Positions 10,110 through 53,594 of a stretch of 63,032 nucleotides of DNA are shown here, piece by piece (position 1 is the first letter of the stretch; every line of letters begins with the position of its first letter). The DNA comes from Bacteroidota bacterium (GTDB taxonomy: Bacteria > Bacteroidota > Ignavibacteria > UBA10030 > UBA8401). A model generated the notes under the pieces. The model was not told the origin of the DNA, did no database searches, and was given only the letters and a program-made list of their open reading frames with translations. The translations under genes were made by a program, and so were the position numbers. The DNA lies in the NCBI GenBank assembly GCA_019455105.1, contig JACFMZ010000003.1:4895-67926 (forward strand), given 5' to 3'.

Positions 10110-10112
10110 AAT

Positions 10113-10976
10113 TTACTTTGCCGCCTTTAAAGTTTTCACCGCATCTTCTAATTCACGGAACGTCGGTCTGAAATCGTTAAAAATAACTCTTCGTGCAAAT
10201 TCAACAACAATCATGGGGGCATTGCCTTTTGCGTAAGAAAGAACGCCGACTTTAATGCATTCGAGATACCGCATTTCCGACTGATGGGTAATTTCCAAAT
10301 TAGTTGTCAAAGGACCGATAAATCCGTAGGACATTAACACGCCGAGAAATGTTCCGACTAAAGCGGCGGCAACTTTCATTCCGACTTCTTCCGGCGGACC
10401 GTCAATTGCCTGCATGGTGATAATAATTCCCAATACGGCGGCAACAATTCCAAGACCCGGAAGCGCATCTCCCATTTTCTGTAAAATGCCGGGAGCTTGG
10501 GAACCTTCAATTAATGTTGTCTCTGCATCGGCATCCAAAATTGCTTCCAAATCATGAGCCGGAACTCCGCCGCTGAGAAGAATTTTTAAAGTATCGGTTA
10601 AATAATACAGTGCATGGTGATTTTTTAGCAGAAACGGATTTTTCGAAAAAATTGTACTGCTTTCCGGTTTTTCAATATGCTGTTCAATGTTCATTAAACC
10701 ATCGCGGGTGGCAATGTTAAAAAGTTCAAACATTGTCTTCAGTAAATTAAGATATTCTTCTTTTGTGTACGGGTCCCCTTTGAGCAGCGACATTAAGTTG
10801 CCGGCAAGGTGTTTTAAAATTCGAGGCGGCGCGCTGACAAGCATTGAGCCGATAGCGGCTCCGCCGATAATTAAGAATTCATTTACCTGAACCAACACTG
10901 CCAGCGGTCCTTCGTGCATAACAAATCCGCCGAGAACACACGCAATAACGACAACAATTCCGATAATGACAAACAT
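10113..10976 (-). CDS. motA: flagellar stator protein MotA
   Basis: Four-TM MotA/TolQ/ExbB architecture. 'ALPGLGIVAAVLGIIITM' and 'ALVGTFLGVLMSYGFIGP' are present. Confidence 0.9.
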   Translation of the reverse strand: MFVIIGIVVVIACVLGGFVMHEGPLAVLVQVNEFLIIGGAAIGSMLVSAPPRILKHLAGNLMSLLKGDPYTKEEYLNLLKTMFELFNIATRDGLMNIEQHIEKPESSTIFSKNPFLLKNHHALYYLTDTLKILLSGGVPAHDLEAILDADAETTLIEGSQAPGILQKMGDALPGLGIVAAVLGIIITMQAIDGPPEEVGMKVAAALVGTFLGVLMSYGFIGPLTTNLEITHQSEMRYLECIKVGVLSYAKGNAPMIVVEFARRVIFNDFRPTFRELEDAVKTLKAAK

Positions 10977-15882: not shown

Positions 15883-16715
15883 TTTTTATTCCCTTCCGAA
15901 AATATTTCCTTAAATTGAAACACTCTTTTTACGTAATTCTGCGTTTCTGCTATCGGCGGAACGGTTCCGTGTTTTATTACGCGCTGCGGTCCGGCGTTAT
16001 ACGAAGCCACCGCCAGACGCACATCGCCGTCGAACGTATCGAGCAGTTGTTTTAAATATTTGGTTCCGCCGAAAATATTTTGTTCCGGATCCCACACATT
16101 TTTTACGCCCACCATTGCCGCCGTTGAATCTATCAGCTGCATTAATCCTTTTGCATTTGCCGAAGAAGCAGCACGCGGATTTCCCGCCGATTCGCTGGCA
16201 ATGACTGCTTTAATTAACGTAGAATCCACATTGTATTTTTCGGCAGCTTTTTGAATAATCGGCTCGTATTTTTCAACGGCACTTTTTACCGGCGTTGAAG
16301 TTTTTCCATTTCGCTGTTCAACAAGTTTTTTCAATTCATCAACAGGGTTTGTGTTTTTCGGCAGAGTGCGTTCTGCATCCGGCACCGTATAAGAACGAAT
16401 GTTCGGAAGTGATTCATTCGTTACATTTTTATAGACCGCCTCAGCAATGCCGAAATTAGAAGTGCGGGAAATATGTTTTGCCAATTCAAAATCCATCATT
16501 TCCTGCATCATCTCTCCGCCGAAACCATCGCTCTCGTTATCTTCATTTATTTTATTTGTCGATTCGCGCAGATTCTTTAAAAGATAATTCACAAACATTG
16601 CTTCAAAATCGCGGGCGGCTTTTTGCAGTTTCGCCTTTGATTTTTCGTCAAGTTTCTGCGGCGCTTTCGAAGCGTTTGTTGCCGCATTCAGCAAGATGTT
16701 TGTTTCGCTGTTCAT
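15879..16715 (-). CDS. flgJ: FlgJ-like protein: rod-binding domain fused to a lytic transglycosylase (SLT) domain
   Basis: Rod-binding motif 'AARDFEAMFVNYLLKNLRES'. SLT motif 'ASESAGNPRAASSANAKGLMQL...YNAGP'. Confidence 0.8.
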   Translation of the reverse strand: MNSETNILLNAATNASKAPQKLDEKSKAKLQKAARDFEAMFVNYLLKNLRESTNKINEDNESDGFGGEMMQEMMDFELAKHISRTSNFGIAEAVYKNVTNESLPNIRSYTVPDAERTLPKNTNPVDELKKLVEQRNGKTSTPVKSAVEKYEPIIQKAAEKYNVDSTLIKAVIASESAGNPRAASSANAKGLMQLIDSTAAMVGVKNVWDPEQNIFGGTKYLKQLLDTFDGDVRLAVASYNAGPQRVIKHGTVPPIAETQNYVKRVFQFKEIFSEGNKK

Positions 16716-16720: not shown

Positions 16721-17812
16721 TTAGAGAATAACAAGCTCTGCTTTTAATGCACCGGCTTCTTTAAGCGCCTGAAAAATGGCAATAATATCTCTCGGCGTAA
16801 CTTTTAATGTATTTAATGCTTTGGCAATTTCTTGAACGGTTGCCGCGCCGTTAATGGCAACAACCGAAGTTGTATCAATATTCGTGGAAATTGTTGACAT
16901 CGGCGTTACAACGGTTCTTCCGTTGGAAAATGCCGGCGGCTGAGAAATAATCGGCGTCTGTTGAATTTCAATATTTAATCCGGCATGAGATATGGCAACC
17001 GGAAGAATCTGCACATTTCCGCCAACAACAATAGTTCCGGTTTTTTCATTAATCACAACTTTTGCGGAAACATCCGGAGTAATTTCGAGCAATTCAAGAA
17101 TGGAAATAAATTCTACTAATTTTCCTTCCGCCGTATAGGAAGCCGGAACATCAACAGCAATTGTTGAAGCATCAATGGCATTTGCCGAAGGAGTTCCCAG
17201 CGCCGTATCAATAGCACCGGCAATTCGCTTTGCCGTTGTAAAATCTGCCTGCCATAAGACAATAGAAATTTTTCCGTTTTCAACTAACTGAACGGTTAAC
17301 GGCTTTTCAATAATTGCACCGCCGGGAATTCTTCCGGCGGCTGTGTGATTGCGCCGCACTTCGCTTCCGTTGGAACGCACATTCATTCCGCCGACAGAAA
17401 TTGCTCCCTGCGCCGAAGCATAAATTGCTCCGTTGGTTGTAGAAAGAGGCGTAACCAATAATGTTCCTCCCTGCAGTCCCGTGGCATCGCCTAACGAAGA
17501 AACTGTTACATCCATAACTCCGCCGGATTTAGAAAACGGCGGCAACGATGCCGTTACCATTACGGCGGCAACATTGCGAAGCCGTAAATCATTTTGCGGA
17601 ACAGTAATACCGAACCGTTTCAGCATACTTGAAACTGATTGAATGGTAAAGGTGGAACGCTGACTGTCGCCGGTTCCATTTAACCCGACAACCAATCCGT
17701 AGCCGATTAATTGTTCGGAAACCATTCCCTGAATGTACGCGAGGTCTTTAATTCTTGTGGCAGAAAAAAGAAATTCCGCCGCGAACAAAAAAAGTATTAG
17801 TAAGCGTTTCAT
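16721..17812 (-). CDS. flgI: flagellar P-ring protein FlgI
   Basis: Start set at the ATG 17812 signal peptide (MKRLLILFLF). 'RIKDLA...QLIGYGLVVGLNGTGD' is the FlgI signature. Confidence 0.92.
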   Translation of the reverse strand: MKRLLILFLFAAEFLFSATRIKDLAYIQGMVSEQLIGYGLVVGLNGTGDSQRSTFTIQSVSSMLKRFGITVPQNDLRLRNVAAVMVTASLPPFSKSGGVMDVTVSSLGDATGLQGGTLLVTPLSTTNGAIYASAQGAISVGGMNVRSNGSEVRRNHTAAGRIPGGAIIEKPLTVQLVENGKISIVLWQADFTTAKRIAGAIDTALGTPSANAIDASTIAVDVPASYTAEGKLVEFISILELLEITPDVSAKVVINEKTGTIVVGGNVQILPVAISHAGLNIEIQQTPIISQPPAFSNGRTVVTPMSTISTNIDTTSVVAINGAATVQEIAKALNTLKVTPRDIIAIFQALKEAGALKAELVIL

Positions 17813-17814
17813 AA

Positions 17815-18387
17815 TTAAAATATCCAATGAAAAAATTTTGTTAACCATCCCGGCTCCTGCGCATCACTAATCATTCCTTTTCCTTCAATCACAATCACCG
17901 CATCTGAAATATTGTAGGAATAGACACTGTTATCCGATTGAATATCCGAAGGACGCACGACGCCGGAAAGTTTTATTGTTTGATTTTCTCCGTTCACGCT
18001 GATTACTCGGCTGCCGCTGATGTAAAGATTTCCGTTGACTGCCAGCGAATCAACTTTGGCAGAAATTTTTGTCTGCACAGAACCTTTCGTTGCGGCGGAA
18101 CCAATTCCTTTAAAATCATTTCCTGTTCCGATTGATGCACCGACATCCAGCAGCGATTTTGTTCCGCTTTTTGCGCCGGAACTAAGAGATAAATTACTTT
18201 CCCGCGAAGCAGCCGTGCGCGTATCGTTCGAAGCGGAGGAAGATTCCACCACCAGCACCGTTACCGCATCGCCGATACTGCCGGCTTTTTGATCCGCAAA
18301 AAGAGAGCGTAAAGAATTTTGCCGCAAATCTTGAGCCGTGCCGACCGCAAGTATGACAAAGAAGAAGAATACAAATTTATGTTTCAT
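17815..18387 (-). CDS. flgH: flagellar L-ring protein FlgH
   Basis: Start set at ATG 18387 (MKHKFVFFFF signal peptide), 4 nt after the flgA stop. 'SLFADQKA...GDAVTVLVVESSSAS' and 'NGNLYISGSRVISVNGE' are present. Confidence 0.9.
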   Translation of the reverse strand: MKHKFVFFFFVILAVGTAQDLRQNSLRSLFADQKAGSIGDAVTVLVVESSSASNDTRTAASRESNLSLSSGAKSGTKSLLDVGASIGTGNDFKGIGSAATKGSVQTKISAKVDSLAVNGNLYISGSRVISVNGENQTIKLSGVVRPSDIQSDNSVYSYNISDAVIVIEGKGMISDAQEPGWLTKFFHWIF

Positions 18388-18391
18388 ACCA

Positions 18392-19084
18392 TCACCGTGC
18401 GATAATTTCAACTGTTTGTTTTCCAATAACTTTTGCCTGAACAATTTCTTTTGAGCCGCTGCGAACGACAGGAATTTTTCTTCCGAGAAATCCTTCCTGA
18501 CGCGCAATTCCTGTTGAACGAAGAAGAACGTTGTTCGATTTTACCATAATTGTTACCACATCATCCCGCTGAATAACGGGAAGCTCTTCAACAACAGACG
18601 GAACAATAACCGAATTTTCTTTCACATTTTTTTTCATCCGCTTTTGTTTCAACGGTTCAACGGACGTTATCGGCGCTTCGCGGAAAAATGTTGTTTCAAG
18701 GTTTCTGCGTGTTAATGACGTAAGATCAATTTCTTCATTCTTTTCAAACATACGGTTGGTAACATACACCGTTTCAAATGTCCGAATCAGCACCGAACAC
18801 ATAACGGTTTGCAAACATGCAGAGCCGTTCCAAATTTCCACCGGTAGAGAGACATATCCTTTTAACGCCGGCGGCCGCTGAGATGTGATACGTAACGTAT
18901 AGTCTCCCTGCGGAAGAATAATTTCTTTGGGAAGCGATCGGTATTCAATATGATATTCAACGCCGCTGTTCTGTAATTCATTCACAAGATAGTGCTGCAC
19001 GGTATTCTGAAATGCGCTTTCAGAAATCGTCTCCGTCCGCCCAAAAGCAAAAATAAAACTGAGAATGTACAGAAACAGATTCAT
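18392..19084 (-). CDS. flgA: flagellar P-ring assembly chaperone FlgA
   Basis: Signal peptide. C-terminal 'IQRDDVVTIMVKSNNVLLRSTGIARQEGFLGRKIPV' FlgA/SAF-like pattern. Confidence 0.8.
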   Translation of the reverse strand: MNLFLYILSFIFAFGRTETISESAFQNTVQHYLVNELQNSGVEYHIEYRSLPKEIILPQGDYTLRITSQRPPALKGYVSLPVEIWNGSACLQTVMCSVLIRTFETVYVTNRMFEKNEEIDLTSLTRRNLETTFFREAPITSVEPLKQKRMKKNVKENSVIVPSVVEELPVIQRDDVVTIMVKSNNVLLRSTGIARQEGFLGRKIPVVRSGSKEIVQAKVIGKQTVEIIAR

Positions 19085-19088
19085 GCTT

Positions 19089-19880
19089 TTATCCCTGTTT
19101 CAAATTATTTGCCATTGCCAGCATTTCTTCAACGGTTTTAATGGTCTTTGAATTAATTTCATAGGCGCGCTGCGCAACAATCATGTTCACCATTTCTTCA
19201 ACGACATCAACGTTGGAAGATTCGAGCGAACCCTGCATTAACTCGCCGAATCCTTCGGAACCTGCCGCGCCGATAATCGGATTTCCCGAAGCACTCGTTT
19301 CGATAAATAAATTATTTCCGATGGAATGCAGACCGGCAGGATTTACAAATTTTGCCAATTCCAACTGACCGAGACGAACGGCGGCAGTTTGTCCGGATTC
19401 CATTGCTTCAATGGTTCCGTCTCGCGAAATAGTTATTTGATTTGTATTCGGCGAAAAAACGACGCCCGGTTCCACAACATACCCTTGAGCATCAACAAGC
19501 TGCCCTTCTGCAGAAATTTTAAATGAACCGTCCCGCGTGTACGCAATCGTTCCGTCCGTTCTGCGAATTTGATAAAATCCTTCTCCCTGAATCGAGACAT
19601 CAAGCGGATTATTGGTCGGCTGAACATCGCCCTGCCGGAAATTTTTTAATGTTGCCACAGGAACAACACCGTTGCCGATTTGAATTTCGGTCACTTCATT
19701 GGTTGTTCCGTCCTGATTTGTACCGCCGGTTTTAATTGTTTGGTACATTAAATCCTGAAATTCCGGACGGCTCTTTTTAAAACCGGTAGTATTAACGTTT
19801 GCAATATTGTTGGAAATAAGATCGACATTCATCTGCTGGGCAAACATTCCGGTGGCGGCTGTGCGTAACGCTCTGTTCAT
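19089..19880 (-). CDS. flgG: flagellar distal rod protein FlgG
   Basis: 'MNRALRTAATGMFAQQMNVDLISNNIANVNTTGFK' and C-terminal 'LESSNVDVVEEMVNMIVAQRAYE'. Confidence 0.92.
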   Translation of the reverse strand: MNRALRTAATGMFAQQMNVDLISNNIANVNTTGFKKSRPEFQDLMYQTIKTGGTNQDGTTNEVTEIQIGNGVVPVATLKNFRQGDVQPTNNPLDVSIQGEGFYQIRRTDGTIAYTRDGSFKISAEGQLVDAQGYVVEPGVVFSPNTNQITISRDGTIEAMESGQTAAVRLGQLELAKFVNPAGLHSIGNNLFIETSASGNPIIGAAGSEGFGELMQGSLESSNVDVVEEMVNMIVAQRAYEINSKTIKTVEEMLAMANNLKQG

Positions 19881-19907
19881 GGTATTTATCCTTCTTTAAA
19901 AAAATTA

Positions 19908-20651
19908 TTAAATTCTTCCGACTTCTAATGCTTTTTCCAGCGTACCGTCTTGGTAGCGCATTGTCCGCTGATCGGCTTCAAAACTTCTAGACAACTCAAC
20001 CAGTTGAATCATTTCTGAGAGCGATTGCACGTTGGATTCTTCAAGATAGCCCTGACGCAATGTGGTGTCGCTGTCATTATTTTTTATATCTCTTGGCGAT
20101 TCATCTGCTGCAAAGAGTGTTCCGCCGACCTTTAAAAGCTTTTGCATCTCTTGAAACTTTACAATTTTAATTTTCCCGATTTGGTTTTTACCAATATATA
20201 TTTCACCGTTTTTATTAATCGTAATATCGGTTTGTTGAATTGTTGAGGCATTCGGAATGGTAAGATGACCGCCGGTGCCGACAAGAAAATGTCCGTCGGA
20301 ATTGACAACATCGCCGCTGTCATCCAGTTTAAAATTTCCGTTACGCGTATAGCGCGGACCTTCGGGTGTTTCCAGCACAAAAAATCCGTTTCCCTGAATG
20401 GCAACATCCAGCGGATTGCTTGTCGGTCGAAACGAACCTTCGGAAAAATCGGTAAACTCTTTCACATCTAAACCGGCAAATTCGCCGGCTTCAGTGCTTT
20501 TGGCAATTCCGGCATTTTTTAATATCTGCACAAAAATATCGTTCTTCTTAAAACCTGTCGTATCGGCATTCGCAATATTGTTCGCCACAACATCCAGCTT
20601 CAATAAGCGCGGCTGCATTCCCGAACTTGATGAATAGATACCTTTAATCAT
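19908..20651 (-). CDS. flgF: flagellar proximal rod protein FlgF
   Basis: 'SGMQPRLLKLDVVANNIANADTTGFK', C-terminal 'LEESNVQSLSEMIQLVELSRSFE'. 247 aa. Confidence 0.85.
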   Translation of the reverse strand: MIKGIYSSSSGMQPRLLKLDVVANNIANADTTGFKKNDIFVQILKNAGIAKSTEAGEFAGLDVKEFTDFSEGSFRPTSNPLDVAIQGNGFFVLETPEGPRYTRNGNFKLDDSGDVVNSDGHFLVGTGGHLTIPNASTIQQTDITINKNGEIYIGKNQIGKIKIVKFQEMQKLLKVGGTLFAADESPRDIKNNDSDTTLRQGYLEESNVQSLSEMIQLVELSRSFEADQRTMRYQDGTLEKALEVGRI

Positions 20652-21676
20652 ACCGCTGCCTCCTGATCAATTTTTTTATTTTTCAGTTTAGAAATATTTG
20701 CCGCAAGATCAAGCTCGCCGACGGAGACGCCGAGTTTTTTTGCGGTGATAATTTTTTCTGTTTTATTTTCTTTCCGGTTTTTCACTAACTGTGCGCCGTT
20801 CTTTTTTATCATTTGAATTTCAGATTTTTCAAACCATGCGCGAAGTTCCGCTTCCCCCTGCATACGAAGTGTCTCTTCTTCTGCGTGTTCTTCATCGCGT
20901 TCTTCTTCATACCATTCGCCGGAGTGTACTTTCACAGGTTCTGCATTGTTTCGCTGAACAACTTCAGTCGCACGCGCAAGATTTTCTTCAAACTTTACCG
21001 CCGGCATTCTATTGTTACCATTTATTTTTTCAGAACGCCGGTGTTTAAGAATAAAGACATACATTAATGAACCGGTGCCGAGCGCCAAAACCAAAAATGT
21101 AATACCCACTAACCCAAAAGCGCCGCCGGCACTCAACGTGTTCGGAATTTTCGGCTCCACGGAAATTTCCGCGGCAGCGATGATTTTTTGAACTTCTGCC
21201 GGCGCGGCTGCCGGTGTATCATTACTGCCGGATTCTAACGCGATTTTTGGAATATCCAGAACCGGCGCTGCCTTCGGCTGCTCTTGTTTCTTTTTTACGA
21301 TAAGTTTTTTCTGCGGATAGAAATCAATGATAATACGGTTCGCCCCTTCTTCTTGAAATATTTTATACTCCGTCTCTGCGCTTCGTAATTGCAGTGCAAT
21401 ATTTTCGCTTCCATCCGGATCGGCACGCATAATAAATTGTTTTACCGTTCCGTCGTTAAAATTATACGTTGCATTTTTTACTATAAAATCCGCCGGTTTT
21501 CCGAGCAGCGAAATTTGCATAGATGTTCCGTTTCGCATTTCCTTCCATTCAACGGCGCCGCGCACGGCAATAACAATGCGGTGATATTCCGGACGCACGG
21601 TATAGGTTAACGGTAAGTTTCCCGCCGGAAGGAAACAATACAAGAGCAGAACAAAAAATATTAAACGTGTTTTCAT
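20648..21676 (-). CDS. uncharacterised bitopic membrane protein with an AMIN-like periplasmic domain
   Basis: Start set at ATG 21676 (MKTRLIFFVLLLYCF), which overlaps the kinase stop as ATGA. The roughly 110-aa N-terminal domain ends in 'ANRIIIDFYP' (AMIN-like). One TM segment ('FGLVGITFLVLALGTGSLMYVFIL'). Charged cytoplasmic tail. ATGA overlap with flgF. Confidence 0.6.
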   Translation of the reverse strand: MKTRLIFFVLLLYCFLPAGNLPLTYTVRPEYHRIVIAVRGAVEWKEMRNGTSMQISLLGKPADFIVKNATYNFNDGTVKQFIMRADPDGSENIALQLRSAETEYKIFQEEGANRIIIDFYPQKKLIVKKKQEQPKAAPVLDIPKIALESGSNDTPAAAPAEVQKIIAAAEISVEPKIPNTLSAGGAFGLVGITFLVLALGTGSLMYVFILKHRRSEKINGNNRMPAVKFEENLARATEVVQRNNAEPVKVHSGEWYEEERDEEHAEEETLRMQGEAELRAWFEKSEIQMIKKNGAQLVKNRKENKTEKIITAKKLGVSVGELDLAANISKLKNKKIDQEAAV

Positions 21677-23058
21677 GCTTTCTTCATCGTCCTTTGTAAT
21701 GGAAGGTAAATGGTAAAGGTTGTTCCTTTTCCAAGCTCGCTGGTTACTTTTATTTCGCCGCGATGATTGGTAATAATTTTTTTGCAAATCGATAAGCCGA
21801 GTCCCGTTCCTTTTCCTTCTTCTTTTGTCGTAAAGAAAGGAGCAAAAAGCTGCGTCATATTTTCTTCGGCAATTCCTACGCCGGTATCGGAAATATGAAT
21901 CTGCAGCTGGAAATCTTTTACTTCCGTTGCCAATCTCAGCGCTCCTCCTTCAGGCATGGCATCGCGGGCATTAATGAGCAGATTGAGAAATACCTGCTGA
22001 AGCTGTTGTGCGCTTCCTTGAATGCCCGGAAGTTTTTCGGAAAGCGCGTATTCTACGGTAATTCTTTTTGTCTGCAAGTCATGTTCAATAATATCGCCGA
22101 TGAATTTCAATTCCCGATTCACATCAACAATATCCTGAAGGCTTTCTTCGCTGAAGCCGCGCGAGAAATTCATTAAGCGGCGCGTAATTTCCGCCAAACG
22201 CTGAATTTGTTTCTGAAGCATCGGCAGCGCATCTTCGCCTCCCTTGCCCATCATAATAATTTCTATCTGCATGGAGAGAATTTGAATCGGATTTTTTATT
22301 TCGTGCACAATACTGGCGGCAAGTTCGCCTAACGCAACAAGTTTTGCCACCTGCAGCATTTGTGATTGATATGATTTTAATTCGTTGTTGGCTTTTACTA
22401 ACTGCATCTGCGTCCGCCAGTTTTCAACGCCGACCGCCGCCTGATTTGCCAGCACGGTAAGAAGCTGAATATCCTGATGCGAAAATTCTTCCTGCTTCTT
22501 TTCAGTATGAATCATATACACGCCGATTCCCTGACCGCGCAGCATCAGCGGAACCATGACATAATTTTTTGTTGCGCCGTTTTTCATTAAGTGCGAAAGG
22601 TCGGGAATGATAACGGTTTTTTTCTCGGAAAAAATCCAGTCAACAATTCCGGCTTCCAAATGCTGCTGCGCTTCTCTTTCCAGCTCCGCCGAGCCGTGCG
22701 CCGTTAACGGAACCAGACGTCTGGTGGTGCTGTCAAACAAAAAGATAGAAGCTTCAATAACAGGAATAACCTGCTCGGTTAATTCAATTAAAGTTTTAAT
22801 AATGGAATTCGGTTCCTGCGCCGTGCCGATAATATTGGAAAGCCGCTGCATTGCCACCAGCTCATCAATAGAAGTTTTTATATCTCCCTGTTGATTCACA
22901 ATATGCTGATGTTCGCCGACCACCGCTTTTAATGTTTTTTCCAGCGCCTGAATATAGCTTTCCCGGCTTTCAATAAACTTTTCGAACTGCGGCACAACGC
23001 TTTCAAGAATTTCTTCTCTGGATTGTTTTGCCGCGTGATTTTCTTCAATTGATTTCAT
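21673..23058 (-). CDS. cytoplasmic sensor histidine kinase with GAF domain
   Basis: No TM segment. GAF-like region (aa ~85-215). H-box 'LAASIVHEIKNPIQIL'. N/G boxes 'LINARDAM', 'DTGVGI', 'GTGLGLSI'. Confidence 0.85.
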   Translation of the reverse strand: MKSIEENHAAKQSREEILESVVPQFEKFIESRESYIQALEKTLKAVVGEHQHIVNQQGDIKTSIDELVAMQRLSNIIGTAQEPNSIIKTLIELTEQVIPVIEASIFLFDSTTRRLVPLTAHGSAELEREAQQHLEAGIVDWIFSEKKTVIIPDLSHLMKNGATKNYVMVPLMLRGQGIGVYMIHTEKKQEEFSHQDIQLLTVLANQAAVGVENWRTQMQLVKANNELKSYQSQMLQVAKLVALGELAASIVHEIKNPIQILSMQIEIIMMGKGGEDALPMLQKQIQRLAEITRRLMNFSRGFSEESLQDIVDVNRELKFIGDIIEHDLQTKRITVEYALSEKLPGIQGSAQQLQQVFLNLLINARDAMPEGGALRLATEVKDFQLQIHISDTGVGIAEENMTQLFAPFFTTKEEGKGTGLGLSICKKIITNHRGEIKVTSELGKGTTFTIYLPLQRTMKKA

Positions 23059-23060
23059 AA

Positions 23061-23954
23061 TTAAAAATTCGCTAAATGAGAAAGTAAGGCAACATCACGG
23101 GTATCTTTTTTTACTAAATCGGAATATTCTTTTACATATTCCTGAATCAATTCTTCATCGTTTAATTGTAATATCTCCAGTGCATCCGGGTGAAATTCAA
23201 TTCCTTTATCAAATTCAATCTCTTCGCCGGAAATTAATTTTGCAAACACATCCGCGCAGTGAATAATTGATACCAACTGCGAATGTTCTTTTGCTTCGCC
23301 CGGATTGTGGTGATAGCGGATTGCTTCCACCAAATGGTCCGGAAGATTCCAGCGTTCGCCGAGCCAGCTGCCGATAACGGCATGCGTAACGGGAAACACG
23401 CTTTCCTCGGCTTCAAAAAATGTTAATTTACTGTCCCGCACAATTTCAATCATCCGGTGAAATTCCGGCGTGAAATATTTATTGAGAATAGAAATTCCCA
23501 TATCGTGAAGCAGTCCGGCAACGAACACTTCACCCGTTACGCGGTAGCCGACATCGCGGGCAAGACGGCGGGCAATAACACCGGTGCCGATTGCGTGATC
23601 CCAAAATAATTGAGAGTTAAAATACAAATCGTTTTTCTTTTGCAGAGAACTGACCAGCGCAATACTGATGACAATCTCCTTTAATGCGTCGAAACCGAGA
23701 ACGATAATGGCAAAATCAATCGTCGATATTTTTTTGGGAAATCCGTAGAACGGCGAGTTCGCTATTTTTAAAACTTTTGCGGTCAGCGCCTGGTCGGTCG
23801 AAATCAGCCTGCCCAATTGCTGCGCGCTCGTTTTCGGATTGTCAACCATTTCCACAATATCCATGGCAATAGCCGGCATTGCGGGAAGTTGAATAATGGT
23901 TTTTACGCGCTCTTGAATTTGTTCGGAAGTCAATATTTGTCGTACTGCGCTCAT
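23061..23954 (-). CDS. HDOD-domain signalling protein
   Basis: 'LPAMPAIAMDIVEMVDNPKTSAQQLGRLISTDQALTAKVLKIANSPFYGF' followed by 'GLLHDMG' is a typical HDOD pattern. Confidence 0.8.
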   Translation of the reverse strand: MSAVRQILTSEQIQERVKTIIQLPAMPAIAMDIVEMVDNPKTSAQQLGRLISTDQALTAKVLKIANSPFYGFPKKISTIDFAIIVLGFDALKEIVISIALVSSLQKKNDLYFNSQLFWDHAIGTGVIARRLARDVGYRVTGEVFVAGLLHDMGISILNKYFTPEFHRMIEIVRDSKLTFFEAEESVFPVTHAVIGSWLGERWNLPDHLVEAIRYHHNPGEAKEHSQLVSIIHCADVFAKLISGEEIEFDKGIEFHPDALEILQLNDEELIQEYVKEYSDLVKKDTRDVALLSHLANF

Positions 23955-23959
23955 AAACT

Positions 23960-24667
23960 TTATGCTGTTACTCCGTTCTCAACAAAGAGCGTGCGTAAGG
24001 AAAGAATTGCTTCCGCATGAAGCTGAAACACTCTCGATTCCGACAGGTGCAGAACCTGTCCGATTTCCTTAAACGTTAAATCTTCGTAGTAATAGAGCGT
24101 AAGAATGAGCCGCTCTTTTTCCGGAAGGCGCTGAAGCCCTCCGACTAATTTTTTATTCATTGATTCTTGGCTCACAATTTCGAACGGAGAATTGCTTTCC
24201 TCATCCGGAATATCTTCGAGAACCGTAATAACATCTGCCTGTCGTGTGGTTTTCATTGATTCACCTTCGATCTCTTGAATGAAATGATGATAATCTTCTG
24301 AGTTCATATGTAAGAACGACATGGCGCGTTGAGCCGCCTCGTGTTCCAGTGCGTAAGAATCTTTTACTTCTTTTCGCTGCCTTCTTGAAAGAACATCGGC
24401 GGAACGAAGGCCGTCAAGAATTGCCCCGCGTATTCTGTAGATTGCAAAGGTTTCAAACTTTGCTCCTTTGTGCGGATCGTACCGGTCAAAAGCATCCAGC
24501 AAACCAATCATTCCGTACTGCACAAGATCATCAAACGAAAGAATTGAACTTTTCACGTTTTTTGACGCAATGGTTTTTGCCACGGATTTTACCAATCCGA
24601 TATACTGAGCAACCAGTTCGCGCTTTCCGGCGGGGCTGAGATGAAATGTTGAATTCTTAAGAGCCAT
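23960..24667 (-). CDS. fliA: flagellar sigma factor FliA (sigma-28)
   Basis: Sigma-70 family regions 2-4: 'DLVQYGMIGLLDAFDRYDP...FETFAIYRIRGAILD', 'LTFKEIGQVLHLSESRVFQLH'. Position after flhF-flhG. Confidence 0.9.
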   Translation of the reverse strand: MALKNSTFHLSPAGKRELVAQYIGLVKSVAKTIASKNVKSSILSFDDLVQYGMIGLLDAFDRYDPHKGAKFETFAIYRIRGAILDGLRSADVLSRRQRKEVKDSYALEHEAAQRAMSFLHMNSEDYHHFIQEIEGESMKTTRQADVITVLEDIPDEESNSPFEIVSQESMNKKLVGGLQRLPEKERLILTLYYYEDLTFKEIGQVLHLSESRVFQLHAEAILSLRTLFVENGVTA

Positions 24668-24674
24668 AATTTAC

Positions 24675-24884
24675 TTATGCAAGCTTTTCTGCTTCATTGG
24701 TTTCTTTGGGTTTCACCGTCATCATAGAGGCGACAAAAACAACGCCAAGCAGTGCGCCGATGGTGGCAATAAAGACGACAAAGGCTTTTGCGATAATTTC
24801 CACAATATCCATTCCCATTGAGGCATACACTACCGCCGTAACGCAAAATGCCAGCAAGCCGATTTGAAAAATAATTTTATTCAT
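24675..24884 (-). CDS. small two-TM membrane protein (uncharacterised)
   Basis: 69 aa with two hydrophobic helices. ATGA overlap with the flhG stop. Ends 7 nt before the fliA start. Confidence 0.5.
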   Translation of the reverse strand: MNKIIFQIGLLAFCVTAVVYASMGMDIVEIIAKAFVVFIATIGALLGVVFVASMMTVKPKETNEAEKLA

Positions 24885-25741
24885 ACATACACCGTTGAAG
24901 TTTGTGGTTCTTCCATTGCCTCTTCAAGCAGCAAACGCTGAGCCGCCGCCTGAATGCACAACGCGGAAGATGATATCGGATATTTTTTTAATAATGGTAT
25001 CTGCGCCTTCACTGAATCGGCAACGCTTTCATCAAACGGAATAAAGCCGATGTAAACAATTTCCTGCTTCAAAAAATGTTCTGCGGCTTTTTGTAATTTC
25101 TGCGCCGCTTCTTCGCTTTCCAATGGTTGGTGCACATTGTTCATAATAAGGTTGAAACGAGCGCCGTGAACTTTCCGGGAAATTATTTTTACTGCCGCGT
25201 ACGCATCCATTATTGCCGTCGGTTCAGAATTTGAAATGAGCACAATATCGTTGGCATACGATGCATACTGAAGAACATCATCCCGAAGTCCCGCCGCCGT
25301 GTCAAAAATAATATCGGAAAATTCATGCGTGCTGCCGACCATTCCGGAATAAAGATAATCTCTATCCGAAGCAGAGATTTCAGCATATTCAAACGAACCG
25401 GAATTTCCGCACATCATAAAAACATTTCGTGAACTTTGATACACGGCATCATCAATGGAAGTTTTTCCTAACAGGATATCGTTTATTCTGTACTTCGGCG
25501 CCGCGCCGGTGAGAACATCAAGCTTTCCAAGATTTTCATCCGCATCCACCAGTAAAACTTTTCGCCCGCTCTTTGCCAATGTCATTGCCATACCAACAGC
25601 AAAAACACTTTTCCCGACTCCGCCTTTACCGCTCACAATCGTCCAAACATGAGGCAGCGCCGGATTGGCAACGGATTCTCTCTTCGACATTAAGGTGCGA
25701 AGATGGTCCGCTTGATCGTATGACAATGATAAATTATGCAT
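24881..25741 (-). CDS. flhG: MinD/ParA-type ATPase FlhG (FleN/YlxH)
   Basis: Deviant Walker A 'VSGKGGVGKSVFAVGMA'. Position after flhF. Confidence 0.9.
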   Translation of the reverse strand: MHNLSLSYDQADHLRTLMSKRESVANPALPHVWTIVSGKGGVGKSVFAVGMAMTLAKSGRKVLLVDADENLGKLDVLTGAAPKYRINDILLGKTSIDDAVYQSSRNVFMMCGNSGSFEYAEISASDRDYLYSGMVGSTHEFSDIIFDTAAGLRDDVLQYASYANDIVLISNSEPTAIMDAYAAVKIISRKVHGARFNLIMNNVHQPLESEEAAQKLQKAAEHFLKQEIVYIGFIPFDESVADSVKAQIPLLKKYPISSSALCIQAAAQRLLLEEAMEEPQTSTVYV

Positions 25742-27020
25742 GTGCTAATATTCCTTGATATAACATAGCGGCAAACTTTGTGCCATTAGCAGCGCAAATA
25801 TCATCAGGAACTGACTGTCCTAGAGTGAAAAATGAAACCGGTAATTTTGTTTTCTGCATAATATTATACAGTGGACCAAAAGTAACCGCCTCATCGAGTT
25901 TTGATAAAATTAAATGCGTGGGTTCTAAAATTTTATATTCTTTAACAATAGATTGAAGCGTTGCCGTATTGCTTTGACTGCCGGTCACAAGATGAACTTC
26001 CGTAGCATGCGCAGCTTCTACCATTTTCTTTAATTCCAGTAATTCCTTCTTTGCACGATGACTTCTGCCGACAGTATCAATCAGCACAACATCGGCGCGG
26101 TTGATTTTTTTTAATGCGGCGGGAAGTTCAGAAGAACGATAAACAACCTGCATCGGAATATCGGCAATGGAAGCAAAGGTCTTTAATTGTTCAATAGCGC
26201 CGATTCGGTACGTGTCACATGTTATCAGCGCAACAGATTTGTTGTTCACTAACTTTTCAATAGCCGCCAGCTTTGCAATGGTTGTTGTTTTTCCGACTCC
26301 CGTCGGTCCGACCAACGCAATAATTTTTCGCTTTGCTGTTTTTGCGGAAGATTGCTGCACCGGAAATTTTTCTGCTAACAATTGCAGAACTAAAGTATCG
26401 GCGCTTACGGGAGAATCTTTTCGGCTGCGGGAAAGTTTTTTTTCTATTTCACTGGTAATATCCAAAACATATTTTTCTTCCACATCCTGCTGAAGCAGCG
26501 TGAGATAAATATCTTTCACAGAATCCGGCAGCTGCCCGAAACTTTTATATTGAAGCTGGCGGGAAAGAGTCGTCAGCATCGATTTCATATCTTCCACATC
26601 CGACTTTAACTGCACAATTTCTCCGGCATCTTTTACCTGCTGCGGAAGAGCTTTCATGGGAGTTTTTTCTGTTTCTCTTTCTTCAAAAGCTTCGGTCATT
26701 TTCCGCAGACTTTCAATAACGTCTTCCGGTTTCGATTCGTTGTTAGCAATTGCCTCTTTCATCGCCTTATCATACGAATGACGCACCGCATGTTTTGAAT
26801 AGGTCGGCTGAAACTTCGTCAATGATTTTTCATCATTTAACGGATGAGGAAGCTCATCAATAGCGGCGGTAATTTCAACGCGCTCTTTACCGATTGTTTT
26901 CAACAAAGAATTTTTCGGCAGTTTTCTGGTGTGTAAAATAATGGCTTCAGGACCGAGTTCCTGTTTCATTTGCTCGGTGGCTTCTTTTAAGCTCTCCGCT
27001 ACATATTTTTTAATTTGCAT
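25734..27020 (-). CDS. flhF: SRP-type GTPase FlhF
   Basis: 'LVGPTGVGKTTTIAKLAA', 'DTVGR' and 'SKLDE' G-motifs. Position after flhA. Confidence 0.92.
   Translation of the reverse strand: MQIKKYVAESLKEATEQMKQELGPEAIILHTRKLPKNSLLKTIGKERVEITAAIDELPHPLNDEKSLTKFQPTYSKHAVRHSYDKAMKEAIANNESKPEDVIESLRKMTEAFEERETEKTPMKALPQQVKDAGEIVQLKSDVEDMKSMLTTLSRQLQYKSFGQLPDSVKDIYLTLLQQDVEEKYVLDITSEIEKKLSRSRKDSPVSADTLVLQLLAEKFPVQQSSAKTAKRKIIALVGPTGVGKTTTIAKLAAIEKLVNNKSVALITCDTYRIGAIEQLKTFASIADIPMQVVYRSSELPAALKKINRADVVLIDTVGRSHRAKKELLELKKMVEAAHATEVHLVTGSQSNTATLQSIVKEYKILEPTHLILSKLDEAVTFGPLYNIMQKTKLPVSFFTLGQSVPDDICAANGTKFAAMLYQGILAHA
25771..25785 (-). promoter_or_regulatory. sigma-54-type -24/-12 element inside the 3' end of flhF, upstream of flhG
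   Basis: The minus strand reads TGGCAC-AAAGT-TTGC. The -12 GC lies 30 nt upstream of the flhG ATG, and AAGGAA is positioned as a Shine-Dalgarno sequence. Confidence 0.45.
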
Positions 27021-29118
27021 TGGTAACCTCCAAAGTGGTGATAAATTCTATGTCTGTTTCCGGCGGAAGTTCCGTAAACGAAAGCACGGTAATCATCGGA
27101 AACGTTGTATGAATTAAGCGGTAGAAATAGGGACGCACAGTTGCCACGCATAACACAACCGGATGAACGCCCTTCATTGCGGCAACTTCTACGCCTTGTT
27201 GTAAATTCTGTTGAATCTCATTAATAATTTCCGGCGCCAAGCCGAGACTCGGACTGGTATCGCGGGAATTTTGAAGCGCGGTGGTTAATAATTGTTCCAA
27301 TTTCGGATGCATGCCGATTGCGCGAAGAACGCCGCCGGCATCGGTATATAATCTGGCAATTGTTTCAGAAAGCGAATGACGCACATATTCCGTCAGCACA
27401 TCAACATTCTTTGTTACACGTGAATAATCTATCAACGCTTCAAGAATTGTTACGAGATCGCGAATCGGAATTCCTTCACGCAAAAGATTCTGCAATACTT
27501 TTTGAATGGAGCCAATCGGCAGCGTTTCCGGATTTACATCTTCCACCACGGCGGGAAATTCTTTTTTCAGATTTTCCACGAGTTTTTTTGTATCCTGCCG
27601 GGATAAAATTTTGTCCGCATGAATACGAAGCACTTCCTGCAGGTGTGTTGAAAGAACGGATGCCGGTTCCACGACAGTGTAACCAAGTACTTCGGCTTCA
27701 GTTTTATTCGCTTCGGTAATCCAGAGCGCCGGCATTCCGAACGCCGGTTCTTTTACTTTAATGCCTTCCACTTCGCGTTCTGTCTGCGTCGGTGTCATGG
27801 CTAAGTAGCGTTCTACCAATAAATGATCGGAAGCAATAACATTTCCGCGGATTTTAAATACATACTGGTCGGCTTCTAACTGTAGATTATCCCGCACGCG
27901 AATGGGAGGAATTATTATTCCCAAATCAATCGCCAGTTGTTTTCGTAAGTTTGTAATTCGATTGAACAAATCTCCCCCCTGCGCTTCATCCACAAGAGAA
28001 ATTAAGCCGTACCCGATTTCTAACTCAAGCGCATCCACTTGAAGATATTCTTCAATGCTCTCTTCTTTCTTTTTTGTTTCTTTCGGTTTTTCGTCGAGCT
28101 TTTGTGTTTCATCAATCGATTTTTGTTTTTTTGTATTTACGTAACCGATTGTTCCTGTTAATCCCGCCAACGCAAGAAATGGAATGGTCGGCAGTCCGGG
28201 AATAATGGCAAACACGCCGAGCGTTCCGGCAGCGATAAGAAGAACTTTCGGTTTTCCGAAAATTTGTCCGCGCACTTCCTGGTCCAATTTATTTCCGGAA
28301 GCGCTGCGCGTTACTACCATACCGGCGGCAGTGGCAATAATTAACGCGGGAATCTGCGTTACCAATCCGTCGCCGACGGTGAGCATGGTATAGGTTTTTA
28401 ACGAAGCGGAAAAACTTAAATTCCGCTGTACCATGCCGATAATAAATCCGCCGACAATATTTATGACATTGATAATTAATCCTGCCATGGCATCGCCGCG
28501 GACAAATTTGCTGGCGCCGTCCATTGCGCCGTAAAATTCTGCTTCGCGGGAAATCTGCGATCTGCGGTTGCGCGCTTCGGTTTCGGTGATAAGACCCGCA
28601 TTCATATCGGCATCAATCGCCATTTGTTTTCCGGGTAGAGCATCCAAAGTAAAGCGGGCGGCAACTTCGGAAATTCTGCCGGAACCTTTAACGATAACCA
28701 CAAACTGAATTAAGATGAGAATGATAAAAATAATGAAGCCGACAACATAATTTCCTTCCACCACAAACGTTCCGAACGAAGTAATAACTTCTCCGGCATA
28801 TCCTTCGCCGAGAATTAAACGCGTGGAGGCAACATTTAATGATAAACGGAAAATTGTGAGCACCAGCAGCAACGCGGGAAAGATTGAAATTTCCAACGGG
28901 TGCGTAATATACAGCGACACCATGAGAATGAGAATGGCAATAGTAATATTTGCCGCCAGTAAAATATCCAGCAGTACCGGCGGAAGCGGAATAATCATTA
29001 ACCCAAGAATTGCAATAACGGCAACAGCAAGAAGAATATCTGTATTGTTGCTGAATGTCTTCATTAAAGAAGTATTCATAAATCCCGAAGGAACCGTGGT
29101 TGTTGAAGATGTGCTCAT
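27010..29118 (-). CDS. flhA: flagellar type III export gate protein FlhA
   Basis: 702 aa. FHIPEP signature 'RFTLDALPGKQMAIDADMNAGLI...FYGAMDGASKFVRGDA'. Confidence 0.97.
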   Translation of the reverse strand: MSTSSTTTVPSGFMNTSLMKTFSNNTDILLAVAVIAILGLMIIPLPPVLLDILLAANITIAILILMVSLYITHPLEISIFPALLLVLTIFRLSLNVASTRLILGEGYAGEVITSFGTFVVEGNYVVGFIIFIILILIQFVVIVKGSGRISEVAARFTLDALPGKQMAIDADMNAGLITETEARNRRSQISREAEFYGAMDGASKFVRGDAMAGLIINVINIVGGFIIGMVQRNLSFSASLKTYTMLTVGDGLVTQIPALIIATAAGMVVTRSASGNKLDQEVRGQIFGKPKVLLIAAGTLGVFAIIPGLPTIPFLALAGLTGTIGYVNTKKQKSIDETQKLDEKPKETKKKEESIEEYLQVDALELEIGYGLISLVDEAQGGDLFNRITNLRKQLAIDLGIIIPPIRVRDNLQLEADQYVFKIRGNVIASDHLLVERYLAMTPTQTEREVEGIKVKEPAFGMPALWITEANKTEAEVLGYTVVEPASVLSTHLQEVLRIHADKILSRQDTKKLVENLKKEFPAVVEDVNPETLPIGSIQKVLQNLLREGIPIRDLVTILEALIDYSRVTKNVDVLTEYVRHSLSETIARLYTDAGGVLRAIGMHPKLEQLLTTALQNSRDTSPSLGLAPEIINEIQQNLQQGVEVAAMKGVHPVVLCVATVRPYFYRLIHTTFPMITVLSFTELPPETDIEFITTLEVTNAN

Positions 29119-30200
29119 ACAAGTTTATTTTTTCGTGTTTTTAATCGGTAGATATAAGCAAGAATCTGCGCGACAGCCTGGAATAATTTTTCGGGAATAT
29201 ATTCTCCGATATCCACGGTTTTATACAATGCCTGCGCCAGCGGCTTATCTTCCACCGTTGGGATGTTGTGCTGCTTTGCGACCTCTTTAATTTTCTGCGC
29301 CATCAAATCGGCGCCTTTTGCCAGAACTTTCGGCGCGTGCATTTTTTTTGCATCGTATTGCAGCGCAATGGCAAAGTGCGTCGGATTTGTTACCACCACA
29401 TCGGCTTTCGGCACATCGGTCATCATTCTGCGGTAGGCAATCTGGCGCTGAAGCATTTTAATTCTTCCTTTTATTTCCGGATTACCTTCCGTCATTTTTG
29501 TTTCTTCTTTTACTTCCTGCTTGGTCATGCGGAGATTTTTTTCAAATTCAAAGCGCTGATAACCGTAGTCGATAATGCCGATGACGACAAACGCAATTCC
29601 GACTTTCACAAAAATTTCCATAGTAGAGGAAATTAAAAAATTACCGATCTGCGAAGCATCGGAATCTACCAGCATTACTGCTCGATCCAGCAAATCGGAA
29701 ATAATGAAATACGCAACAATACCGACAACCGTGGCTTTGAAAATACTTTTCAGCATTTCAACTAATGTATGCGTGGAAATCATAATCCGCTTAATGCCGG
29801 CGAAAGGATTGAGCTTATTCCATTTCAAGCGAAGCGCCTGCGGCGTAAATTTAAAACCGACCTGCGCAATATTGGAAATCATTCCAATAACAAAAAAACC
29901 GGCAAGAATCGGAAGAAGCGTTGCCGCAAAAAAGATCATCAGTTTTCCGAAATAATATTGAACGGTTTCGCCGGTTAATTCAATAGTCGGAATAACCATA
30001 ACAATTGTTTTAAATAAATCATTGATGTGTGAATAAACCGACGAGCCGAATAAATACACAACAAAAAATCCGGGAAGAAGCATGGCAATGGCATTTAAAT
30101 CCATACTTTTCGCCACCATTCCCTTTTCGCGGGAATCTTCCCGTTTTTTTCCTGTCGCCGGCTCAGTACGTTCTTCTTTATCGGGTGCTTCGTCTGCCAT
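29115..30200 (-). CDS. flhB: flagellar export switch protein FlhB
   Basis: N-terminal 'EERTEPATGKKREDSREKG'. NPTH autocleavage site 'VVVTNPTHFAIAL'. Confidence 0.95.
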   Translation of the reverse strand: MADEAPDKEERTEPATGKKREDSREKGMVAKSMDLNAIAMLLPGFFVVYLFGSSVYSHINDLFKTIVMVIPTIELTGETVQYYFGKLMIFFAATLLPILAGFFVIGMISNIAQVGFKFTPQALRLKWNKLNPFAGIKRIMISTHTLVEMLKSIFKATVVGIVAYFIISDLLDRAVMLVDSDASQIGNFLISSTMEIFVKVGIAFVVIGIIDYGYQRFEFEKNLRMTKQEVKEETKMTEGNPEIKGRIKMLQRQIAYRRMMTDVPKADVVVTNPTHFAIALQYDAKKMHAPKVLAKGADLMAQKIKEVAKQHNIPTVEDKPLAQALYKTVDIGEYIPEKLFQAVAQILAYIYRLKTRKNKLV

Positions 30201-34332: not shown

Positions 34333-34347
34333 ACAAAGCGTATGCCA
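34333..34347 (-). promoter_or_regulatory. near-consensus sigma-54-type element upstream of fliL
   Basis: The minus strand reads TGGCAT-ACGCT-TTGT, so the -12 reads GT rather than GC. It ends 30 nt upstream of the fliL ATG, with AGGAGAA in between. Confidence 0.3.
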
Positions 34348-46075: not shown

Positions 46076-46100
46076 TGGCATCTCTTTTTTTATTACTTAT

Positions 46101-46116
46101 TGCAATCAAAGTGCCA
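46101..46116 (-). promoter_or_regulatory. sigma-54 (RpoN) -24/-12 promoter of the flgB-led flagellar operon
   Basis: The minus strand reads TGGCAC-TTTGA-TTGCA, a perfect match to TGGCAC-N5-TTGCW. It sits in a 125-bp AT-rich intergenic region, about 25 nt upstream of the first downstream ATG. Confidence 0.65.
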
Positions 46117-50522: not shown

Positions 50523-50536
50523 AGTCTCCTCAATGT

Positions 50537-53571: not shown

Positions 53572-53594
53572 GTTGAGCGCCTTTCTCAATAATA

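Follow-up and report, generated by a model that had tools for sequence, protein, structure and literature searches.

A 63,032-nucleotide (nt) stretch of contig JACFMZ010000003.1 from a Bacteroidota bacterium of the Ignavibacteria lineage (the window, numbered here from its first letter) contains one flagellar and chemotaxis supercluster, in which three non-canonical genes occupy the interval between the sigma-28 gene fliA and the rod gene flgF. We conclude that these genes, which encode an HDOD-domain protein, a GAF-domain histidine kinase and a small membrane protein, most likely belong together as a conserved regulatory module of three genes in the flagellar regulon of Ignavibacteria-type bacteria. 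The minus strand carries all of the genes considered: fliA at 23960-24667, the HDOD gene, first of the module, at 23061-23954 (297 amino acids, aa), the kinase gene at 21673-23058 (461 aa) and the third gene at 20648-21676 (342 aa, counted from the ATG at 21676). Between fliA and the HDOD gene there is a spacer of 5 nt (23955-23959), and between the HDOD and kinase genes one of 2 nt (23059-23060); the start of the third gene overlaps the kinase stop (ATGA), and its own stop overlaps the start of flgF.

An earlier reading of this stretch (the original prediction) had described an HDOD protein and a GAF-HisKA-HATPase kinase directly after fliA, with these two gaps, as non-canonical genes embedded between fliA and the rod genes. 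The coordinates confirm the strand and the gaps. The identities of the three proteins are borne out by Pfam and NCBIfam scans; the Pfam scan covered every open reading frame (ORF) of at least 110 aa that was judged to be a gene, and several smaller ones. FliA (235 aa) matches Pfam Sigma70_r2 and Sigma70_r4 and scores 191 bits against the NCBIfam model FliA_WhiG (cut-off 189.6). The embedding in the flagellar transcription unit is upheld both by synteny in relatives and by a run of 32 same-strand genes, from fliL to a gene for a response regulator with a receiver domain (REC) and an HD-GYP domain (REC-HD-GYP), that spans 26 kb with no intergenic gap above 27 nt. The pair does lie between fliA and the rod genes, as had been stated, but the 342-aa membrane protein gene, not flgF, follows the kinase gene. 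This third conserved gene and the intact metal site of the HDOD protein were the two points missed.

The module keeps its place in related genomes

With one genome per species, we obtained 75 kinase-family loci at a threshold of at least 43% identity, nearly all of them labelled Ignavibacteria, Ignavibacteriota, or "Bacteroidota bacterium" or "Bacteroidetes bacterium" metagenome-assembled genomes. Close homologues of the kinase, equal to it in length and 52-71% identical, number in the hundreds. An HDOD gene directly precedes the kinase gene in 67 of the 70 testable loci, the other three being one divergent copy and two frameshifted assemblies. fliA lies no more than 4 kb upstream of the kinase gene in 55 of 59 loci, and flgF or flgG no more than 3.5 kb downstream in 58 of 63. 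Most often the genes run flhA-flhF-flhG-sm69-fliA-(0 to 2 extra genes)-HDOD-kinase-membrane protein-flgF-flgG-flgA-flgH-flgI, where sm69 is a 69-aa membrane protein. The module is thus kept at the same place in about 60 species. The original prediction had named homologues never linked to flagellar genes in other genomes as an outcome that would speak against it; in nearly all related genomes they are tied to such genes.

Median identities, measured against the proteins of the window, were 70% for FlhA, 69% for FlgG, 67% for FlgI, 65% for the HDOD protein and 54% for the kinase, and 46% for FlgF, 43% for FlhF, 38% for FlhG and 37% for FliA. Since the HDOD protein is at the level of FlhA, FlgG and FlgI, we conclude that it is under selection as strong as that on the most conserved structural parts.

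In a few loci the pair stands in other surroundings. Loci L034 and L044 have the order fliG-[sigma-54-type motif]-fliL-fliM-fliN-sm69-HDOD-kinase-membrane protein-motA-motB. In L031 (807-4007), L033 (8367-11377) and L068 (7903-11356), a small ORF with a transmembrane (TM) segment, fliE, the HDOD gene and the kinase gene follow one another; within 10 kb there are no further flagellar genes. Ahead of the pair, L031 and L033 have a sigma-54-type motif, the small TM ORF, which resembles the ORF found after the flgB promoter, and fliE (Pfam FliE, E=1e-19); in L068 the small ORF and a FliE-like ORF were recognised by eye, and no sigma-54-type motif was found there. Further upstream, all three loci encode stand-alone receivers, which carry a Cys-rich motif at the C-terminus (LPICxxCKKIR...CPxC), and a hybrid kinase of 1476-1757 aa with an Hpt domain. 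The exceptions L031, L033, L034 and L044 indicate that the pair holds together behind a putative sigma-54-type promoter even where the surrounding structural genes are gone. The arrangement in L031, L033 and L068 could go back to a flagellar cluster that has been lost while the module survived.

We rejected one candidate for Rosetta-stone evidence, the 708-aa HDOD-GAF-kinase fusion P0046. On the L081 contig flhA, fliP, flgH and flgI are also fragmented, so that an indel artefact is most likely, and the case is a caution on taking database "fusions" as evidence.

The histidine kinase

The kinase is predicted to be cytoplasmic and catalytically intact. Pfam places GAF/GAF_2/GAF_3 at residues 82-213 (E about 1e-11), HisKA at 243-300 (E=2e-8) and HATPase_c at 350-455 (E=6e-29). 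Hydropathy gives no TM segment, the maximal 19-residue Kyte-Doolittle mean being 1.48 in a stretch that holds charged residues; together with the Pfam match to GAF, this agrees with the original description of a soluble GAF-bearing kinase. The phospho-accepting H252 in SIVHEIKNP is invariant across 25 family members, as are N359/N363, D391-x-G393-x-G395, F405/F408/F409 and G417-x-G419-L-G421 (N, G1, F and G2 boxes). With an H-box histidine on the helix of the dimerisation and histidine phosphotransfer (DHp) domain and all ATP-binding boxes, the protein belongs with the class I sensor histidine kinases. In an AlphaFold2 (AF2) model (predicted local distance difference test score, pLDDT, 73), N-terminal helices at 14-52 and 59-79, which form a coiled coil, are followed by the GAF domain (83-190), the DHp region (194-303, with long helices at 194-269 and 277-303) and the catalytic ATP-binding domain (309-453).

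The two best of 85 NCBIfam matches to the kinase core are AtoS (201 bits) and ZraS (166 bits); the cut-offs of these families are 646 and 479 bits, and the kinase belongs to neither. ZraS is also the best PDB match, and KinB and ThkA are among the other solved structures matched, over the core only. AtoS and ZraS, which signal to NtrC-type sigma-54 activators, thus have the closest catalytic cores and the H-box HEIKNP, but are membrane proteins with other sensor domains. The motif H-E-x-x-N marks bifunctional kinase/phosphatases, and the H-box of the kinase (H-E-I-K-N) fits it. Among the 25 best NCBIfam kinase matches listed there is no FlrB, FleS or FlgS model. For the N-terminal 215 residues (coiled coil plus GAF), full-length relatives fall in few 50%-identity clusters, the rest of the matches being giant multi-GAF proteins; the kinase family is therefore compact and lineage-specific. 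Database names in these families are generic ("HDOD domain-containing protein", "ATP-binding protein").

The HDOD protein

The Pfam HDOD profile matches residues 23-218 over its whole length (positions 1-196 of 196; E=2e-63, 213.8 bits). The closest solved structure by sequence is 3HC1 of Geobacter sulfurreducens (E=9e-39), with the metal ligands aligned. In Foldseek searches with an AF2 model (pLDDT 87.7), the top matches are all HDOD structures: 3HC1 (E=1e-10, 28% identity), SadB (9qzk), 3mem and Cj0248 (1vqr, deposited as "virulence factor"). The protein has a complete di-metal site of the H..HD..H..HH..D type (H120, H150, D151, H191, H215 and H216, with D235), which is kept in 67 of 67 orthologues apart from a single substitution at D151 and another at H216, and in 28 of 28 paralogues, D235 being replaced by E in three. 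In 3HC1, two iron ions are bound by five His and one Asp, according to the SadB structure paper (PMC12075610). All ligand residues of 3HC1, itself a protein without known function, are present in the HDOD protein (28% identity in the Foldseek alignment), and its site is probably occupied by di-iron. It does not classify as HD-GYP: only HDOD and generic HD profiles of Pfam match, with no HD_5 match and no GYP lid, and at the level of fold the HD-GYP structure Bd1817 (E about 0.1) and PhnZ appear at low score.

HDOD proteins affect motility elsewhere, as described for GsmR (Xanthomonas), Cj0248, SadB (Pseudomonas), PSPTO_4229, PFL_0554 as well as PFL_5871; HDOD is thus tied to motility repeatedly, by a mechanism that is not worked out. 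GsmR, Cj0248, SadB and PSPTO_4229, stand-alone or REC-fused, have the same fold as the protein in the window, and their mutants are altered in swimming or flagellar gene expression. Unlike it, none of them has been described inside a flagellar operon, beside fliA and with a dedicated kinase. SadB, moreover, has lost most of the metal ligands, whereas the HDOD protein of the window keeps them all. A second, independent HDOD association with these flagellar loci is seen in L087 (837-5647, minus strand), where genes for a REC-HDOD response regulator (449 aa) and a kinase with REC and four PAS domains (1196 aa) lie beside flgB, divergent from the flgB operon.

The third gene

The membrane protein has an N-terminal hydrophobic segment (window of the hydropathy scan from residue 5), a TM segment in its middle (windows from about 181-192) and a C-terminal motif, AKKLGVSVGELDLA, of the KLGxGxGE-DLA type; it matches no Pfam or NCBIfam family. 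A counterpart with a TM segment and the C-terminal motif was recognised by eye in most related loci, and by a strict pattern in 34 of 65, with a consensus of approximately AKKLG(V/I)G(R/K)GE(I/V)(D/E)LA across loci and an overall identity of just 23-29% among relatives. In the most divergent family members (L067, 12023-13586; L063, 4727-6326), genes for a FliK-like protein (Flg_hook) and for a FlhB C-terminal domain standing alone separate the membrane-protein gene from flgF.

Sigma-54-type motifs precede the flagellar runs

The sole match without mismatch to the sigma-54 consensus TGGCAC-N5-TTGCW in the 63 kb, TGGCACTTTGATTGCA (46101-46116, minus strand), lies in the 519-nt gap between cheB and flgB. 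A second sigma-54-type motif, TGGCATACGCTTTGT (34333-34347, minus strand), lies in the 195-nt gap between flgE and fliL, 30 nt before the fliL start, and is a candidate for the promoter of the 26-kb run in which the module lies. Exact matches to TGGCAY-N5-TTG number three in the window (before flgB, before fliL and at the 3' end of flhF), each of them on the coding strand; a fourth, weaker site (53838-53852, minus strand) precedes the first REC gene of the che operon. Scans of positions 17000-30000 for generic sigma-70 promoters and terminators gave chance-level matches only.

The same motif recurs in relatives. It stands 48-51 nt before fliL in L034 and L044, where fliL-fliM-fliN-sm69-HDOD-kinase follow, and directly upstream of the small ORF, fliE, HDOD and kinase genes in L031 and L033. 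At the equivalent place before flgB, TGGCAY-N5-TTG(A/T/C) is found in seven further loci: L083 (TGGCACTAGGCTTGA), L086 and L087 (TGGCACCGCGATTGA), L089 (TGGCATTTGAGTTGT), L104 and L112 (TGGCATTAGTTTTGA) and L085 (TGGCACACCACTTGA). As the estimated chance of an exact TGGCAY-N5-TTG match in a 400-nt region is about 0.003, we do not regard these seven as chance occurrences. The strict consensus with GC at -12 had no match upstream of flgB in the relatives; the conserved variant TGGCAY-N5-TTG(A/T) was seen instead. On one short related contig, L085, the C-terminus of an NtrC-type activator (AAA lid and Fis helix-turn-helix) and a stand-alone REC are encoded right upstream of the flgB promoter. The motifs suggest a sigma-54-dependent flagellar hierarchy in the Ignavibacteria-type group.

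Two kinds of match were set aside. The site TGGCACAAAGTTTGCC (25770-25785), just before flhG, is present in only 11 of 54 relatives and overlaps the conserved FlhF peptide DGTKFAA, a coding constraint that explains the match. In L030 and L040, the membrane-protein gene has matches of the form TGGCAC...TTGG at its end, which the coding motif GTGIGE accounts for.

The module is probably co-transcribed with the flagellar run. Near word-for-word matches of the stretch occur in metagenomes from wastewater, activated sludge and bioreactors, as well as in two metatranscriptomes. RNA contigs from activated sludge overlap the kinase gene (21941-22386 and 22578-23028) and the HDOD gene (23099-23582), and others cross the fliA/HDOD junction (23842-24154) and the membrane-protein/flgF junction (19852-20761). 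They support expression of the module and are compatible with co-transcription, no more. Production in stoichiometry with the flagellum, as originally suggested, finds no support here; co-transcription alone is likely.

Receivers and the REC-HD-GYP gene

The window encodes five receivers, none of which adjoins the kinase: RECs at 53194-53589, 50537-50908 and 50148-50549, CheB, and REC-HD-GYP at 8168-9355. The REC-HD-GYP protein (minus strand; Pfam Response_reg and HD_5), a candidate phosphoacceptor, is encoded by the last gene of the gap-free run. Its place at the far end of the supercluster, pointed out in the original prediction, is conserved: it is the terminal gene of the supercluster in relatives too. 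Describing it as the only non-Che receiver was an overstatement, since equivalence to CheY is not clear for two of the three single-domain RECs. No response regulator with a DNA-binding or sigma-54-activator domain was found in the 63-kb window by Pfam scan, in agreement with the earlier remark that no cognate DNA-binding regulator is nearby.

Because the 10-kb flanks of the kinase loci end at motB or fliW, linkage of the REC-HD-GYP gene was judged through its own homologues. Orthologues with 40-60% identity occur widely in this group and often share a contig with the kinase gene. Behind motA2-motB2, the gene closes the flagellar cluster in L127 and L128; in L129 it stands behind a motA-motB pair elsewhere in the genome, outside the flagellar cluster. 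The junction with motA2-motB2 is an overlap or a 2-nt gap (8168-10976 in the window; L127, L128 and L129). A gene that stays behind motAB even outside the flagellar cluster is therefore stator-linked, and its product looks like a stator-linked regulator with c-di-GMP (cyclic di-GMP) phosphodiesterase activity.

Sigma-28 region 4 in genes beside the HDOD gene

A FliA-type Sigma70 region-4 domain is encoded between fliA and the conserved HDOD gene in 39 of 62 related loci, by one gene or more. In 26 loci this domain is joined to an HDOD domain, full or partial, and 5 loci have two such genes in tandem; the remaining inserted genes encode region-4-only proteins of about 95 aa. Examples are found in L019 (8025-9098), L067 (8384-9073), L049 (8521-9093), L013 (8810-9091) and L039 (8833-9120). 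The HDOD-region-4 paralogues retain the metal ligands, and the inserted genes give weak Pfam matches to the sigma-like domain of PhyR, a known sigma mimic. The window lacks such a gene, with its fliA-HDOD gap of 5 nt, as do its closest relatives (gaps of 2-52 nt). No description of the HDOD-region-4 architecture was found in the literature searched. The FlgM profile matches neither the HDOD protein, nor the membrane protein of the third gene, nor the 69-aa protein.

Proposed role of the module and alternative explanations

We propose that the module is a functional counterpart of FlgS, FlrB and FleS: a third kind of flagellum-associated sensor kinase, with an HDOD accessory, that signals to an unlinked regulator, most plausibly an NtrC-type sigma-54 activator. 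We assign this proposal a probability of about 0.4. The coiled-coil/GAF region of the kinase and its HDOD partner would read a cytoplasmic signal, for which candidates are the redox or metal state, a nucleotide ligand of the GAF domain or the HDOD pocket, or the state of the basal body during its assembly, conveyed by the membrane partner. The kinase would then set the phosphorylation of a response regulator encoded elsewhere, and an NtrC-type activator would drive the sigma-54-type flagellar promoters, including that of the module itself. The HDOD protein would act as a sensing or modulating partner, either as input or as effector.

Flagellum-associated two-component systems co-occur with FlhF/FlhG and have cytoplasmic kinases with divergent sensor regions, and those of the FlgS/FlrB/FleS type gate sigma-54-dependent flagellar transcription (PMC7064773; PMC3760246). 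The window, which encodes a TM-less kinase, FlhF, FlhG and the L-ring protein FlgH, fits this setting. With FlgS/FlgR of Campylobacter jejuni and Helicobacter pylori it shares a cytoplasmic, TM-less coiled-coil kinase, FlhF/FlhG, and rod/hook genes behind sigma-54-type promoters, which in the window are putative (PMC3760246, PMC7064773). It differs in the GAF domain of the sensor region, in the HDOD gene before and the membrane-protein gene after the kinase gene, and in its location inside a flagellar operon just after fliA, where no FlgR-like regulator was found. In C. jejuni, flgS and flgR are unlinked, a precedent that fits an unlinked regulator. FlrB/FlrC of Vibrio and FleS/FleR of Pseudomonas likewise combine a soluble kinase, a sensor of the small-ligand type (PAS there, GAF here), an NtrB-like core and a sigma-54-dependent tier, only predicted for the window (PMC7064773), but there the regulator gene is adjacent and an HDOD partner is absent, whereas at the locus studied here the regulator is absent and the HDOD protein present. 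Relative to known flagellum-associated cytoplasmic kinases, the GAF sensor, the obligatory HDOD partner, the membrane partner and the fixed position after fliA set the module apart. The module is not described in the literature searched, and searches on Ignavibacteria with sigma-54 and on HDOD with anti-sigma factors returned nothing on it.

Several points weigh against this proposal. A tblastn search with an NtrC central-domain query against all 1.7 Mb of collected sequence gave one match, in L085; no partner regulator was identified, with no NtrC-type gene in the window or within 10 kb on either side in the 75 kinase loci. The likeness to AtoS and ZraS is confined to the catalytic core and lies under every curated cut-off, and that to FlgS, FlrB and FleS is one of described features; we treat the kinase as a putative counterpart of the FlgS and FlrB families, not as an established member. 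The sigma-54 sites are candidates at the level of the sequence motif, and most relatives have TTGA or TTGT at -12, where TTGC is canonical. A kinase within the operon that it would activate requires a basal or second promoter. Contact between the HDOD protein and the kinase is hypothetical, the sole apparent fusion (P0046) being an assembly artefact. Finally, the RNA contigs are assembled, are of low depth and may reflect DNA carry-over.

The original prediction had the phosphorelay feeding into motility or c-di-GMP control. The flagellar link holds, but c-di-GMP is one of several possible targets, and the AtoS/ZraS-type core and the sigma-54-type promoters point to an unlinked NtrC-type activator at least as strongly. 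In the c-di-GMP model the kinase phosphorylates REC-HD-GYP and so controls c-di-GMP hydrolysis near the second stator pair, and the output is motor behaviour, not transcription. We consider this unlikely, yet a serious rival: both genes belong to one gap-free same-strand run, both are conserved in Ignavibacteria-type flagellar superclusters on the same contigs, and REC-HD-GYP is the sole receiver of the window with an enzymatic output besides CheB. HDOD is, in addition, related to HD-GYP, and fusions of REC, HDOD and HD-GYP exist (P0339, P0355). Set against this are the 12 kb that separate the two genes and the coupling of REC-HD-GYP to motA2-motB2, since it follows motAB even outside the flagellar cluster (L129). 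In L031, L033 and L068, moreover, the pair adjoins other stand-alone receivers and a hybrid kinase, not REC-HD-GYP. CheA is equally available as a donor, and from sequence context CheA and the GAF kinase are indistinguishable in that role.

Other explanations centre on the HDOD protein. It might bind FliA or its anti-sigma factor and tune late flagellar genes according to metal or ligand state, with the kinase and membrane protein as modulators. Its gene follows fliA by 5 nt, as that of a typical anti-sigma partner would; the adjacency is conserved, region-4 genes intervene in 39 of 62 loci (HDOD-fused in 26), and these paralogues keep their metal ligands and show the weak PhyR matches noted above. 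FlgM was not found in the window, but it may lie outside, given that the I. album genome paper omits it from the flagellar genes listed as missing. We judge FliA binding, which is putative only, improbable: the HDOD-region-4 gene is absent from the window and its closest relatives, the pair persists without an adjacent fliA in L031, L033, L034, L044 and L068, and tandem duplication of the 3' end of fliA plus the HDOD gene could explain the fusions. A bolder version, a long shot in our view, draws on the physical fusion of HDOD to FliA-type region 4 in relatives, which suggests sigma mimicry as in PhyR/NepR: the HDOD proteins of these loci would be metal- or redox-sensing regulators that act on sigma-28 at a late-gene checkpoint, and the core of the switch would consist of the stand-alone HDOD protein and the kinase. 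Least probable of all is a lack of any common mechanism, with the HDOD protein an active metal-dependent phosphohydrolase on a nucleotide messenger or phosphoester and the kinase an independent sensor that shares its operon. The strictly conserved H..HD..H..HH..D ligand set and the low-score fold likeness to HD-GYP (Bd1817) and PhnZ would suit such an enzyme; HDOD domains are, however, described as non-catalytic in the literature consulted, and the protein has neither a GYP lid nor a Pfam HD_5 match. The adjacency of HDOD and kinase genes in essentially all 70 testable loci, even after relocation, argues for joint function.

Layout of the supercluster and further observations

In transcription order on the minus strand, the supercluster begins with genes for methyl-accepting chemotaxis proteins (61920-54421). 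They are followed by a che block of REC (53194-53589), a HEAT-repeat protein, cheR, REC (50537-50908), REC (50148-50549), a cheZ-like gene, cheA and cheB, and, after the cheB-flgB gap, by a rod/hook block of flgB, flgC, a 93-aa ORF, fliE, fliF, fliG, fliH, fliI, fliJ, fliK, flgD and flgE. The export block comprises fliL, fliM, fliN, fliO, fliP, fliQ, fliR, flhB, flhA, flhF, flhG and the 69-aa membrane protein; fliA and the three module genes come next. The distal block consists of flgF, flgG, flgA, flgH, flgI, flgJ, flgN, flgK, flgL, motA, motB, fliW, csrA, motA2, motB2 and REC-HD-GYP, downstream of which lie SRAP and lexA genes. No flgM, fliC (flagellin), fliD, fliS or separate cheW was found in the 63-kb window; these are presumably located elsewhere in the genome.

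The 69-aa protein (24675-24884, minus strand, between flhG and fliA) is a strongly hydrophobic two-helix protein without a family; by tblastn it is found at the same position in 55 related loci, and it also directly precedes the HDOD gene in L034 and L044. Three other small ORFs have no family assignment: the 93-aa ORF between flgC and fliE (44720-45001); an ORF of about 89 aa after cheB (about 46201-46470, minus strand) with a C-x-C-G motif, also present in L083, L089, L104 and L112; and a TM- or lipoprotein-like ORF of about 49 aa (45932-46081, minus strand) right after the sigma-54 motif, with counterparts in L083, L086, L087, L031 and L033. A search of the window for the sigma-28 consensus gave many weak matches, of which only one is sensibly placed: TAAAACACGGAACCGTTCCGCCGATA (15951-15976, minus strand), with one mismatch to TAAAG-N14-GCCGATA, lies within the 3' end of flgJ, 69 nt upstream of the flgN start; flgN-flgK-flgL may have an internal late promoter here.

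Discussion

The control of flagellar genes has been worked out in few models, which are proteobacterial, epsilonproteobacterial or firmicute, and to our knowledge nothing is known of it in the Ignavibacteria, which are abundant in wastewater, sediments and hot springs. Conserved like the structural core and placed right after fliA, the module makes a strong candidate for this lineage's flagellar checkpoint or environmental gate. It also provides a genetic handle on the widespread HDOD domain, which here has an invariant metal site, a dedicated kinase as neighbour and, in sister lineages, a fusion to sigma region 4; if the HDOD proteins were to prove a sigma-28 switch, this would be the first defined mechanism for the domain. 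If the sigma-54 motifs are true promoters, the "polar flagellate" programme of FlhF/FlhG, a cytoplasmic kinase and sigma-54 would extend to the Bacteroidota-Chlorobi-Ignavibacteria group.

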